Shown here in pieces: positions 1-12,912 of a stretch of DNA of 12,912 bases. The stretch's first letter is position 1. Every line of letters starts with the position of its first letter. This DNA comes from Escherichia coli. Its GTDB lineage: Bacteria > Pseudomonadota > Gammaproteobacteria > Enterobacterales > Enterobacteriaceae. The stretch is from assembly GCF_003334305.1 (NCBI RefSeq), contig NZ_QOWS01000042.1, one strand, 5' to 3'. The notes under the pieces were generated by a model. It ran no database searches, was not told the origin of the DNA, and was given only the letters and a program-made list of their open reading frames with translations. The position numbers and the translations under genes are program-made.

Positions 1-1125
1 CCAGCCTGTTGGCGGAGTGGCTGAAGGCCACGGAACAGGCACCCCAACCGGTAATGCAGAGCCTTCTCCTAAACCAAGGTATGTGAGAAGACCAGCTACA
101 TCCTTTCCACTCAAATTGGTAAGCGTATTGTCCAGCGGTTGTTTACCTGCCAGCGCATTAAGCATTGTCGTGGCAAAGTTCGGATCATTCCCCAGTGCCG
201 CCGCCAGTTCGTTCAGTGTATCCAGTGCAGCAGGTGCAGAACCCACCATTCCTGCAATCGCCGATTTCACAAAAGCCGTAGTGGCAATCTGTGTATTGTT
301 GACCGACTGCGCCGCCGTGGGGGCTGTTGGCGTTCCGGTGAGTGCCGGACTCGACAACGGTGCTTTTAGTGCCAGCGCATTGTTAATGGTGGTACTGAAA
401 TTCGGATCATTGTTAATGGCTGCGGCTATTTCTTTCAGCGTGTCCAGCGTGGCTGGCGCACCATTAATAAGGGCCGTCAGTGCCGCCTGTACAAACGCAG
501 TGGTCGCAACCTGCGTGGTATTATTCCCCGCCGCTGGCGTTGGCGCTTTGGGGGTTCCGGTAAATGTCGGGCTGGCTTTTGGCGCGTACTGTGAATGCGG
601 GTCCGGTGCGGCAAGATGTTTTGCCATCTGATCATCCGCGTAAACCTTCAGCTCCAGTGCCTTGTCATCCACATACTTGCGGGTTGCCAGCACTACAGCA
701 GGGTCGATTTTCAGGGTGATATTGTCCGTGCTGCTGGTAATCAGCACCATGCGCACGGTCTGAGTGCGCCCGCTACCTTCAGCCAGTTGCGGCTTATAGC
801 TTTCCGGGCAGTTGCCCACGGCAATCAATGCCCCGGACTCATCAAACAAGCCCACTTCACGTATCCACCAACCGCCCTCGTTTTCAGGGATCACCTGTTC
901 GGCAATAATCTGGCTGCTGTTCTGCGGGTCGATATAAAGCATATTCAGCGCAGCCCGGCGTTTCTCATTTACCAGTGCCGTCTGCTTTGCGTCCGGCGTT
1001 GGCAATACTCCACCGCCATCGCCCACCGCCATATGGGTAATTTTTAGCGGCACACCGAGCGCGGCGGCGCTGGCAAGTTTCGCCGCGCCAATATCCGTCA
1101 GCAGGGTATAAAATTTTGTGCTCAT
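1..1125 (-). CDS. H: Tail fibre protein, P2 gpH-like; N-terminal ~375 codons only, C-terminus lies beyond the window start
   Basis: Hand translation of the minus strand in the frame ending at 1125 is open to position 1. It begins MSTKFYTLLTDIGAAKLASAAALGVPLKITHMAVGDGGG, resembling the P2 gpH N-terminus as recalled, and contains ...NDPNFATTMLNALAGKQP. The ATG at 1125..1123 overlaps the stop of gene I (ATGA). Missing from the ORF track only because it has no stop inside the window. Confidence 0.85.
   Translation of the reverse strand, partial: MSTKFYTLLTDIGAAKLASAAALGVPLKITHMAVGDGGGVLPTPDAKQTALVNEKRRAALNMLYIDPQNSSQIIAEQVIPENEGGWWIREVGLFDESGALIAVGNCPESYKPQLAEGSGRTQTVRMVLITSSTDNITLKIDPAVVLATRKYVDDKALELKVYADDQMAKHLAAPDPHSQYAPKASPTFTGTPKAPTPAAGNNTTQVATTAFVQAALTALINGAPATLDTLKEIAAAINNDPNFSTTINNALALKAPLSSPALTGTPTAPTAAQSVNNTQIATTAFVKSAIAGMVGSAPAALDTLNELAAALGNDPNFATTMLNALAGKQPLDNTLTNLSGKDVAGLLTYLGLGEGSALPVGVPVPWPSATPPTGW
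142..585 (-). repeat. Tandem duplication of a ~74-codon (222 nt) tail-fibre repeat unit inside H (units 364..585 and 142..363), diverged copies
   Basis: Both units translate to SPxxTGTPxAPTxxxxNNTQ(I/V)ATTAFVxxAxxxxxxxAPAxLDTL(K/N)E(I/L)AAAxxNDPNF(S/A)TTxxNALAxK. Nucleotide similarity is visible, e.g. 'aaattcggatcatt' near 166-185 and 398-412. Confidence 0.7.
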
Positions 1126-6862: not shown

Positions 6863-7513
6863 TCAGCGGCTGTCATTGCGCAGTCTGCGCTCCAGCTGCT
6901 GTTTGTCTTTTTTCACGCCACAGCGGGGATCGAGCTGTAACGCATGGTTGAGATGATTAAGGGCGGACGCCGGATTGCTTTCACTCAGGACAGCGCCAAT
7001 CGCTTTATGCAGACGCGCCCGTGACTGGTCCGGCATATCCAGACCGTCTGTCAGCTCCAGCGTCTGCAGCAGCGGATCGGCATCAAAGCCGGTGGCGGCA
7101 AGCATTGCGCTCTGCGCCGCGTCTGCCATTTCCTCTGCCAGCACGGTCTGCACGTTGCGGTTACCCAGCGGCATCACCCAGCCATGACGCAGGGCATGAC
7201 GCCCGATCTCCAGCGCCCCTGCATAATCTCCGGCATCAATGCGCCACAGCATCACGTACATCAGCACGTCATCCTGTTGAGCGCCTCCGGCAGCCAGAAC
7301 GCCCTCCGCCCAGGCGGCATATTTCGGCAGCAGCTCCACCTTGATTTCCGCTTTTTTGACCGTGGACTGAACGCCCTTGAGACGGCGGCGGTCTTCCGCC
7401 AGTTGCAGCAGCATCAGGTCATAGCCCGACGCGTGGCGAACACTGCCGCCCTCGCGGGCGGCCTGTTCAGCCTGAACGCGCAGGCGATGCTGCCGTGCGG
7501 GACTCAGGCTCAT
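6863..7513 (-). CDS. M: Terminase small (endonuclease) subunit, P2 gpM-like
   Basis: 216 aa starting MSLSPARQHRLRVQAEQAARE, with GAQQDDVLMYVMLWRIDAGDYAGALEIGRHAL resembling P2 gpM as recalled. ATG at 7513 is preceded by GGAG and lies 3 nt after the N stop. Confidence 0.85.
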   Translation of the reverse strand: MSLSPARQHRLRVQAEQAAREGGSVRHASGYDLMLLQLAEDRRRLKGVQSTVKKAEIKVELLPKYAAWAEGVLAAGGAQQDDVLMYVMLWRIDAGDYAGALEIGRHALRHGWVMPLGNRNVQTVLAEEMADAAQSAMLAATGFDADPLLQTLELTDGLDMPDQSRARLHKAIGAVLSESNPASALNHLNHALQLDPRCGVKKDKQQLERRLRNDSR

Positions 7514-7516
7514 GAA

Positions 7517-8575
7517 TTACGCTCCGGTTTCTGCTGCGGCGGCGCTGAAGTCACCAATCTGGATGTTTTCCACCAGTGCAGCGCAGCGATAGTCCTCAAC
7601 CACATAGGCTTCGTTAACGGATTCAAAATTTTCAATCCGGTCACGTTTCGGGTTGTCGATAACTGAACGGCGGCGGGTATCTTCCTGCCAGTAGATGGAC
7701 AGGTTATCCAGACGGGTGATCAGCAGCGCATTCGGCGGGAAGAACGGCGCACGCACCGCCTGCAGGCCACCCATGCGTTTCTGACTGATGATCATATCGG
7801 CAGCCAGTTTTTCACTGTTTTCCTGCTCTTTGTTGACCAGCGGGAAATACTTGTCAGACAGCAGTTCACGACCGCAAATCACCACCAGATCGTCATCGTC
7901 CTGGTAGACCACATCGATAAGCTCATTGACGGCATCCATCACTACGGCGTCCAGGTTGGCATATTCGCCACCTTTCCCGACTTTCACCGCGCCCGGTGTG
8001 GTTTCACCGCCCGTGGTGGTGCTGCCCATGACGTGATCCGGTGCATCCTCACGGATTTTCTGCAGCCAGCCTTTGTTCACATCCTGCAGCAGCGGGTTTT
8101 CGCTACGGTTGGAGGTTTTCGCACGCTTCACGCCGTTAAAGCCGATCATGATGCGGTCCAGTGCCTGACGTTTCACGATGGCGTTACGGATACGCACCTG
8201 GAAATCCTGAAACTTCGCCCACAGGTCCAGCTTCGCGTAGGTCAGCACCGTGTCAAAGTTGGTCTGTTCGCATTTGTATTCCACATCGACCATCAGCGTC
8301 GGATCGACAGGTTCTCGCTCTTTCGCGGTGGTATCAGTGGTTCCGGCAATGGTGCTGCCAACACCCAGCCCCAGCAACTGACCAGACTGCTCAGTCACTG
8401 GCGTGACGTTAATCAGCGTCAGGAAAGCGGCGGACTGCTGGATCTGGTCTTCCAGCGTCTGCTGCACGGACGGCTCTACGGTGAACTTGCTGGACAGTTC
8501 TTCAACTGCCACACCGTTCAGACGCGCCAGCTGCTGCAGGTAAGCGTTAAAAGCAAAGCGGGTATTCTTCTTCAT
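7517..8575 (-). CDS. N: Major capsid protein, P2 gpN-like
   Basis: 352 aa in the position between O and M, the same size class as P2 gpN (~357 aa); ATG at 8575..8573. Confidence 0.9.
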   Translation of the reverse strand: MKKNTRFAFNAYLQQLARLNGVAVEELSSKFTVEPSVQQTLEDQIQQSAAFLTLINVTPVTEQSGQLLGLGVGSTIAGTTDTTAKEREPVDPTLMVDVEYKCEQTNFDTVLTYAKLDLWAKFQDFQVRIRNAIVKRQALDRIMIGFNGVKRAKTSNRSENPLLQDVNKGWLQKIREDAPDHVMGSTTTGGETTPGAVKVGKGGEYANLDAVVMDAVNELIDVVYQDDDDLVVICGRELLSDKYFPLVNKEQENSEKLAADMIISQKRMGGLQAVRAPFFPPNALLITRLDNLSIYWQEDTRRRSVIDNPKRDRIENFESVNEAYVVEDYRCAALVENIQIGDFSAAAAETGA

Positions 8576-8591
8576 CGGGTTTTGTGCTCCA

Positions 8592-9425
8592 TCAGCAATT
8601 GGTCAGAGTGTCAGCGGGGGCGTTACCGCCTGTTGCACGCTGGCGGTAGTCCTGGCGGCTGTCTTCATGACTCAGCTTATTCACCAGTTCGTTAAAGGCG
8701 GTCTGCTGTGCCTGCAGGGCAGTCTCCAGCTCAGACAGACGTTCTTCCTGCTCAGACAGGGATTTTTCGGTGCGTGCGCTCAGGTTTTGCTGCTCAGTGG
8801 CGACCAGCTCCACGGCCTTATGCACATCAGAGAACCGGGCATCGTCGGACTGCTCTTTTTTGGTAAACAGCGCCGTGACACGGGCAAACAGGGACGGTTT
8901 GTCCTCCTGGATTTCTTCCAGTTCGATCACTGTTTCCTCTGCGGCGGTAAAGAGATTGGCGGGATTCTGCTTGCGGTTTGCCAGCGGGTTATGGGCTGCA
9001 CTGGCGCTGAATGTCAGCATTTCCGTACCCAAACTGGCAGGGTCATCAGTGGCAGCCAGGCCGACCAGGTAGGCTTTGCCCGTATCAGCGAACTTCGGGC
9101 TGACTTCCATAGAGGTGAATAATTTCTGGCCTTTTTTCACCAATTCCACCAGGGACTCCGTTGGCTCAACGTCGGCATACAGCGCCATCTTGCCTGCCAG
9201 CGGGCCTTCCGTGATTTCTTCAGCAAACAGCGCCGTCACCTTGCCGTAACGGTTAAAGGTGCTGTCCGGGAGATAAGACTTGATGTGCTCAAGGTTAATC
9301 AGCGCGGTATACACCGCCGGGTTGTAGCTGGCTGCCATCTGTTCCAGCCATTCACGCTGGATTTCGCGTCCGTCGGTGGTGGCACCTTCCACCCCGATGC
9401 GAAAACGCTTTGCTTTCACTGTCAT
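8592..9425 (-). CDS. O: Capsid scaffolding protein, P2 gpO-like
   Basis: 277 aa starting MTVKAKRFRIGVEGATTDGREIQREWLEQMAASYNP, the same size class as P2 gpO (~284 aa); ATG at 9425..9423 is preceded by GGAG. Confidence 0.9.
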   Translation of the reverse strand: MTVKAKRFRIGVEGATTDGREIQREWLEQMAASYNPAVYTALINLEHIKSYLPDSTFNRYGKVTALFAEEITEGPLAGKMALYADVEPTESLVELVKKGQKLFTSMEVSPKFADTGKAYLVGLAATDDPASLGTEMLTFSASAAHNPLANRKQNPANLFTAAEETVIELEEIQEDKPSLFARVTALFTKKEQSDDARFSDVHKAVELVATEQQNLSARTEKSLSEQEERLSELETALQAQQTAFNELVNKLSHEDSRQDYRQRATGGNAPADTLTNC

Positions 9426-12376: not shown

Positions 12377-12727
12377 TTATTTGTTTCTTCTTTGTTCACG
12401 CCTTGTCTTGGCTTCGATAAGGCGTTGAGGTTCAGTGTAAAGCCGTTCTAAAAAAAGATAGGTAAAATCTTCAAGATCCTCAGCAGCAGCTTTATCCAAA
12501 ATACCTTCATGCGCTCCATCATTTCCGTCATCTTTAACGCATTCAGCTAGTTCCCTTAAAGCTTCAGGCAGTAGATGATTATCAAATAACCACTCCATTC
12601 TTAACCCTAGGCTTCTCCTTATTTTTTGCGCAGGCCCTTGCTCCCCATCAGGAAGAAGTCCTTTTGTGGCATAATCAAGGCAAAGCCTAAACATGGTTGC
12701 TGCTGCATTATAACAACCTATAGCCAA
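12377..12727 (-). CDS. Hypothetical small acidic protein in low-GC cargo next to the portal gene; possibly HEPN/DUF4145-like (speculative)
   Basis: 116-codon ORF in ~40-45% GC DNA, convergent with Q (stops 8 bp apart). The TTG at 12727 is preceded by GAGGAAGGGG with an 8-nt spacer; the first ATG is at 12694. No homologue recognised with confidence; the motif GNDGAHEG and a helical, acidic composition are the only hints. Confidence 0.5.
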   Translation of the reverse strand: MAIGCYNAAATMFRLCLDYATKGLLPDGEQGPAQKIRRSLGLRMEWLFDNHLLPEALRELAECVKDDGNDGAHEGILDKAAAEDLEDFTYLFLERLYTEPQRLIEAKTRREQRRNK

Positions 12728-12865
12728 ACATTTCGCCCCTTCCTCATATGCACTATTGATATGCTCAGGTAAGAACTCTGGTGGCTCCTCTACTGCTAAG
12801 TCTGCCGGTGATATAGGCCTAACAACCTCTGCAACTGATCCTACCCACGTAATATGGACACAGGC

Positions 12866-12912
12866 CTAAGCGAGGTTCTTGTTTTCAAATTGTTCCGGAC
12901 TGAGGCCGCCAC
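12866..12912 (-). CDS. 3' end of a further minus-strand gene that continues beyond the window end (product unknown)
   Basis: The same minus frame is open from the window edge to a TAG at 12868..12866, reading ...GGLSPEQFENKNLA*. Only 15 codons are visible, so the evidence is weak. Confidence 0.25.
   Translation of the reverse strand, partial: GGLSPEQFENKNLA

Follow-up and report, generated by a model that had tools for sequence, protein, structure and literature searches.

Invertible tail-fibre segments in related phages

Tail-fibre switching by DNA inversion in Mu, P1 and the e14 element is textbook knowledge, and in Mu and P1 it alters host range. The Hin, Gin, Cin and Pin invertases assemble their sites in a synapse involving Fis and an enhancer, cut a 2-bp core through a serine-DNA link, and then rotate and religate the ends. 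In both the C segment of P1 (Cin) and the G segment of Mu (Gin), a constant part of the fibre is fused to alternative parts by inversion at 26-bp sites within the fibre ORF, with one chaperone for each variable part and an invertase gene adjacent. The e14 P segment with its invertase PinE (stfP-tfaP / tfaE-stfE / pinE) has the same layout as the present locus: the constant fibre part is followed by a site, a cassette with its chaperone, then a second cassette that converges on these together with its companion gene (a chaperone in e14), and finally the other site and the invertase. However, the e14 element is lambdoid and defective, and its constant part (ycfK/stfP) is short and unrelated, whereas the present prophage, apparently a complete member of the Peduoviridae, has a full P2-type H in that role.

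Two phages, 500465-1 (Wadgaonvirus) and Cartapus (Elveevirus), are Peduoviridae in which H, tfa, a converging tfa', Hv' and an annotated DNA invertase occur together. Inversion of a fibre segment in the P2-like prophages of EPEC E2348/69 has been shown by sequencing and PCR (PMC4272514), a change of host range by inversion is stated both there and in PMC12529663, and invertases have been noted in the P2 Z/fun hotspot (bioRxiv 10.1101/2024.10.15.618418). P2 itself shares the gene order J-I-H-chaperone, then sheath and tube, but is without an invertase or a second cassette, Z/fun following G.

The locus described here is an instance of this known system: of the defining features of a Cin/Pin/Gin-type fibre switch, an adjacent invertase gene, paired inverted sites, in-frame alternative fusions and both orientations were all found, while the second cassette has a 65-aa companion ORF in place of a recognisable chaperone. 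The stretch of DNA analysed (the window, 12,912 nt) corresponds without a single mismatch to positions 3595888-3608799 of the E. coli A7 chromosome (NZ_CP028767.1). Of the switch, the window itself contains no more than the left site and the first 75 nt of the segment, all else having been read from the identical public genome A7 (locus L001). On the combined evidence, this P2-like (Peduoviridae) prophage very probably has a tail-fibre segment that can take either of two orientations, with window 64-89 as its left recombination site. As such switches have been textbook matter since Mu, P1 and e14, and are documented in P2-like E. coli prophages, current understanding is unchanged. For annotation, the H gene at the window edge represents the constant part plus one of two interchangeable tips, and the predicted receptor specificity of the prophage is therefore not single-valued.

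The H gene and its junction at the window edge

Judged by ORF sizes, the gene order over the window is that of the P2 late genes, Q and P being encoded on the plus strand and the run from O to I, then H, on the minus strand, an order that matches the RefSeq annotation of the identical A7 genome. The H frame opens on the minus strand with an ATG at window 1125-1123, and runs through 375 open codons before leaving the window at position 1; the two other minus-strand frames across the region contain stops throughout. At the window edge the visible H ends ...LLTYLGLGEGSALPVGVPVPWPSATPPTGW, the last visible residues of its minus-strand translation being ...LSGKDVAGLLTYLGLGEGSALPVGVPVPWPSATPPTGW. 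The relevant features, in window coordinates, are as follows.

676..1125, minus strand: N-terminal baseplate-proximal domain of H, residues 1-150 (Pfam PF12571 'Phage tail-collar fibre protein, N-terminal', E = 1.6e-64, model 1-150 of 150)
78..1125, minus strand: constant part of H (Hc), codons 1-349 plus the first base of codon 350 (open frame; similarity to P2 H; DNA identity of relatives up to the core)
133..573, minus strand: two tandem shaft repeats of 73-74 aa, residues 185-258 and 259-331 (45/74 positions identical between the copies)
64..89, no strand assigned: left 26-bp invertase crossover site, TTCTCCTAAACC-AA-GGTATGTGAGAA on the plus strand, core dinucleotide at 76-77
1..75, minus strand: start of the variable part of H (Hv), the first 75 nt of the invertible segment, codons 351-375 (identity drop; Collar domain; match to e14 StfE)

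A preliminary description, made from the letters of the window, had ascribed to H a P2-like N-terminal domain and a repeat-containing shaft, and both attributions are borne out by the PF12571 match, by 50% identity to P2 H across the N-terminal domain and shaft, and by the two repeat copies, which are also visible as a second BLASTP alignment against P2 H. The constant part also matched phrog_327 'tail protein' (E = 1.1e-161). The same description had suspected a mosaic junction at the window edge, and this can now be placed. BLASTP of full-length H against P2 H recorded 50% identity over residues 1-354 and no significant similarity beyond residue 354, so that continuous similarity to P2 H through this region was not found, and the distal part of P2 H bears no similarity to the distal part here. 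At the DNA level, identity to the CP019275 plasmid-like prophage and phage Cartapus (L003 and L004) stood at 94-99.5% in the 100-600 nt before the core and fell to ~48%, equivalent to unrelated sequence, in the 100-600 nt after it. In a megablast comparison with phage records, one group of matches spanned all 1,125 nt of the visible gene while another ended at query 1061-1063, corresponding to window 63-65.

The break in H similarity coincides with the 26-bp site, and the junction is the left crossover site of an invertible segment of the Cin/Pin/Gin type. The site consists of two imperfect 12-bp half-sites flanking a 2-bp core, and on the coding strand it encodes LLTYLGLGE, H residues 346-354. 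It is identical to P1 cixR at 22/26 positions and to the left site of phage Cartapus at 24/26; its core dinucleotide is AA, as in cix, and not the TC/GA of gix. Window 62-77 differs by 1 nt from the inverted repeat CCTTCTCCCAAACCAA reported for e14 (PMC12529663). A degenerate site pattern occurred once in the window, at 64-89, and in none of 200 shuffles. The half-site scan was controlled with P1 and Mu, for which it returned exactly the annotated cixL/cixR and gixL/gixR (the G-segment borders), and with e14, whose borders were likewise recovered; applied more widely, it found exactly two sites in each invertible locus fetched, including two in the 13 kb of L001. A generic inverted-repeat finder did not detect the sites, between which the perfect match extends to only ~14 nt. 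A multi-site shufflon of the EPEC kind was considered and ruled out, the 13-kb locus having only two sites.

Downstream of the site, the motif PVGVPVPWPSATPPTGW comprises H residues 359-375 (window 51..1, minus strand), and GVPVPWPSATPPTGW... is the opening of the Phage Tail Collar domain (PF07484). As its 15-17 visible residues are too short to be significant alone, the assignment was made with the full-length A7 protein, in which PF07484 covers residues 361-408 (model 1-57 of 57, E = 1.2e-14); the domain begins at window 45, and the window contains its first 15 residues only. The Hv region also matched phrog_523 'tail collar fiber protein' (E = 7e-73). Relatives of the Collar module were found in 782 phage records, under annotations that include T4 gp37 and the distal subunit of the T-even long tail fibre, lambdoid side tail fibres and cyanophage tail-collar proteins. 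The earlier attribution of this motif to a different, widely shared fibre module accordingly holds. In E. coli K-12, the StfE cassette of e14 opens with GSALPVGVPVPWPSATPPTGWLKCNGAAFSAEEYPELAKAYPTNKLPDLRGEFIRGWDD, residue for residue as here.

Comparison with e14 StfE showed that 64 of the first 68 aligned cassette residues are identical, including GSALPVGVPVPWPSATPPTGW, and that the last 14 are shared; overall identity to Hv is 64%, the middle (receptor-binding region) differs, and the second cassette is unrelated. Homology to K-12-type e14 copies in E. coli genomes begins at query 297-300, which is the core, and ends at ~489. A second mosaic boundary was observed inside Hv, beyond the window, at L001 7238-7266 (H residues ~413-421): the Collar part (as far as ...RGWDD) and the last 14 residues, RPRNIAFNYIVRAA, are common to many E. 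coli copies, which diverge in the stretch between them. No invertase site was found at this internal boundary.

P2 H (L006) contains, at codons ~386-394 (VIEYLGLQE), a degenerate crossover site, TTATCGAATATCTCGGTTTACAGGAA, that is identical to Mu gix at 23/26 positions and lies at the homologous shaft end, where the fibre described here has LLTYLGLGE. A crossover-site relic in P2 H was reportedly noted by Haggard-Ljungquist et al. in 1992. The 26-bp site also serves as a portable boundary at which phage lineages exchange cassettes, and this accounts for its appearance as a mosaic junction, for the different cargo behind it in relatives, and for the presence of a degenerate gix-like relic in a phage that has no invertase. 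The proposal that the distal part of H had been swapped stands as regards the foreign module, but it missed a programmed and reversible switch.

The invertible segment in E. coli A7 and its two orientations

In A7, Hc is followed by the Hv end of H, a TfaE-like chaperone, two opposite-strand ORFs, the second site and the invertase gene, so that the remainder of H and a fibre-assembly gene do lie beyond position 1, as had been anticipated. The two sites in this locus are as follows.

L001 7037-7062 (window 64-89): left site, core TT
L001 8633-8658: right site, inverted relative to the left, TTCTCCCAAACC-AA-CGTTTAAGAAAA, core AA

Direct comparison with e14 showed its right site to be identical to that of this prophage at 25/26 positions. 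Full-length H in A7 has 514 aa, Hv being a StfE-like Collar-domain tip of 160 aa, and the chaperone that follows (201 aa, phrog_105) is 88% identical to e14 TfaE. On the opposite strand the segment carries a second, promoterless fibre tip (~110 aa), then an ORF of 65 aa. At 1.6 kb, the segment differs in length from those of P1 (4.2 kb) and Mu (3 kb), and its cargo also differs. The same layout with different cassettes behind the same site was recorded in L003, L004 and phage 500465-1.

The invertase gene lies ~1.6 kb past the window edge, separated from the right site by a 55-nt spacer (L001 8659-8713), and is annotated in A7 as 'recombinase family protein'. Unlike the invertase genes of P1 and Mu, it belongs to a late region of P2 type, in which it follows the fibre operon. 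Its product was compared with the features of the invertase subgroup (~190 aa, a catalytic serine near residue 9-10 and a C-terminal DNA-binding helix-turn-helix): it is a serine recombinase of 188 aa whose identity is 85% with PinE, 77% with Cin and 74% with Gin, and it has a serine at the residue aligned with position 9 that is invariant among PinE, Cin and Gin. It matched phrog_125 'DNA invertase' with E = 4.8e-101, and is 100% identical to the invertase of 500465-1 and 99% identical to that of Cartapus, the corresponding values for Hc being 94-99%; for 500465-1, identity to the visible 1,125-nt part of H is 99.4%. A search of NCBIfam gave no invertase-specific model above cut-off for the recombinase, only sub-threshold serine-recombinase matches, and no family above cut-off for H, the TfaE homologue or the two small ORFs. 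The 5' end of the invertase gene is homologous to the enhancer annotated in P1 (56/72) and also to e14 (63/72), although the stretch is coding sequence too, which makes the similarity a poor guide to function; the P1 record annotates an enhancer at the 5' end of its invertase gene, whereas the Mu record annotates none. By this homology, inversion may depend on an enhancer and on Fis.

Compared with Pfam, the alternative tip gave one weak match, to Gp53-like_C (E = 0.011), which is not treated as established. The 65-aa ORF (L001 8122-8316, minus strand) shares 32 nt, in antisense, with the 3' end of tfaE, and corresponds to the N-terminal half of phrog_5400, a 145-aa family of unknown function; no similarity was found between it and the 145-aa second chaperone of L003. 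Phage 500465-1 has a full-length second chaperone of 147 aa where A7 has the 65-aa ORF. With only this companion ORF beside the alternative tip, the flipped state may yield a poorly assembled fibre.

Inversion of L001 in silico from core to core (7049-8646, 1,598 bp) fused Hc in frame to the other cassette; the resulting H' has 463 aa (...LLTYLGLGEARYVIQRGANANGAWIRWSDG...), and the 65-aa ORF comes after it. The predicted Hc-Hv' junction, as a 651-nt query, found a 100% match in E. coli OkiPb01678. Among E. coli genomes covering at least 80% of the query, the Hc-Hv junction was recorded in 47 and the Hc-Hv' junction in 34. OkiPb01678 (L005) and OkiPb01712 (L002) are sister isolates, both from bovine faeces in Okinawa. 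Compared as they stand, their loci differ at 1,144 positions, all within 7056-8639; after the 1,598-bp segment had been flipped, no mismatch was found in 6,651 nt. Two isolates identical apart from the orientation of the segment indicate that inversion does occur. In the flipped isolate H' is annotated as a 463-aa CDS, and the predicted hybrid site TTCTCCTAAACCAACGTTTAAGAAAA, equivalent to TTCTCCTAAACC-AA-CGTTTAAGAAAA, is present, so that the exchange maps to the interval from position 7 to position 15 of the site, about the core. This hybrid is the product that would be expected of a Cin/Pin-type reaction and, within the sequence comparisons, the strongest sign of inversion.

The evidence for inversion consists of two assemblies of sister isolates, the comparison having been one of assemblies and not of the source sample's reads. 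Mis-assembly of one Okinawa isolate is formally possible as the source of the difference; the choice of one orientation by the assembler from a mixed culture would still imply inversion. As a separate observation, the related prophage of E. coli W (L010, NC_017664.1 983192-984369) is in the flipped orientation, is 98.2% identical across the predicted junction, and has an IS3-family element inside the invertible segment just after H'.

Taken together, the two sites, the gene for the invertase, the two in-frame fusions and the occurrence of either orientation in DNA that is otherwise identical provide the anatomy of the switch, onto which a mechanism can be mapped by analogy with Hin, Gin, Cin and Pin. 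The constant part of H (residues 1-~350, comprising a baseplate-binding domain and shaft) ends within the 26-bp site, and the invertase would pair both sites in a Fis- and enhancer-dependent synapse, cut each at the central AA/TT dinucleotide via a serine-DNA link, and allow the half-sites to rotate by 180 degrees and religate, thereby flipping the segment. The same constant H would then be joined in frame to the other tip, as H' of 463 aa in place of H of 514 aa. Late transcription from a P2-type V-operon promoter would read Hc plus whichever cassette faces it, and each particle from a given lysogen would bear one or the other receptor-binding tip. The outcome would probably be a form of host-range bet-hedging, as known from Mu and P1.

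Alternative readings and the ends of the window

A single past replacement of the distal part of H by horizontal transfer, with the site inactive today, would account for the unrelated sequence that relatives bear after the same point, for a Collar module common to unrelated phage groups, and for the second mosaic boundary in Hv at ~413-421, where no invertase site is present; the P2 relic (23/26 to Mu gix, in a phage without an invertase) confirms, moreover, that frozen junctions of this type exist. It is nevertheless an improbable account of a locus in which the invertase gene and both sites are intact, the cores match and the alternative fusions are in frame, and of two otherwise identical isolates that differ by the flip alone. 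Cassette exchange and ongoing inversion are compatible, the former being the history of the locus and the latter the explanation of its present anatomy.

A further proposal, very unlikely to be correct, accepts the invertible segment and adds that the switch also serves the host, the cassette in the off position being translated as a free tip protein that masks receptors and blocks other phages. Its precedent is StfE2 of e14, which is created by inversion of the P segment and lowers adsorption of phage T2 (PMC12529663). Consistent with it, an in-frame leader, MMPVS(C/R)YLCIF(L/I)NVGLGE, is present ahead of whichever cassette is off in L001, L003, L004, L005 and L009, e14 has a similar leader (MMPFACYFFIFINVGLGE), and genome annotation calls the off-position cassettes as ORFs. 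The leader sits, however, in the 55-nt spacer, which must accommodate the promoter of the invertase gene as well, and it may therefore be conserved for some other reason; for an apparently intact P2-like phage the classical host-range role would probably be sufficient. The more specific suggestion that the off cassette is translated from the MMPVS.YLCIF start, the switch then alternating two superinfection-exclusion specificities together with two host ranges, draws on the conserved in-frame leader and the StfE-like cassette, and is likewise unlikely. The start of the off-position frame, in the L001 8659-8713 spacer, corresponds to the stfE/StfE2 reading frame of e14.

That there is no junction at all, H being a continuous homologue of its P2 counterpart with a chance resemblance in the motif, has in its favour the P2-H-like N-terminal 354 residues and nothing else that was found, and can be dismissed given that BLASTP recorded no significant similarity to P2 H past residue 354, that the Collar match from residue 361 has E = 1.2e-14, and that DNA identity falls from 94-99.5% to ~48% at the site.

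Counted from the outer base of the crossover core (window 76-77), exactly 77 nt remain to the left end of the window (window 1-77), and the right end falls exactly 77 nt inside a 1,258-bp IS3 copy (12836-12912). From these distances into a branch point and a repeat we infer that both are contig ends of a de Bruijn assembly with k = 77; if so, H was cut off at the window edge because the assembly graph branched at the crossover. The branch would reflect either a culture with both orientations or a genome with two copies of the cassette; the junction query matched one place only in A7, which counts against a second cassette copy in that genome. More generally, draft assemblies tend to break at such a crossover, or to fix one orientation arbitrarily.

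At the other end of the window, just beyond the portal gene Q and beside the IS3 copy at 12836, lies a 116-aa ORF annotated DUF4145 (window 12377-12727, minus strand), for which PADLOC returned nothing in its truncated form next to IS3. It matches only the C-terminal half (117-224 of 226) of phrog_1305 'DNA binding protein', and the 5' half of the gene appears to have been lost to the IS3 insertion.
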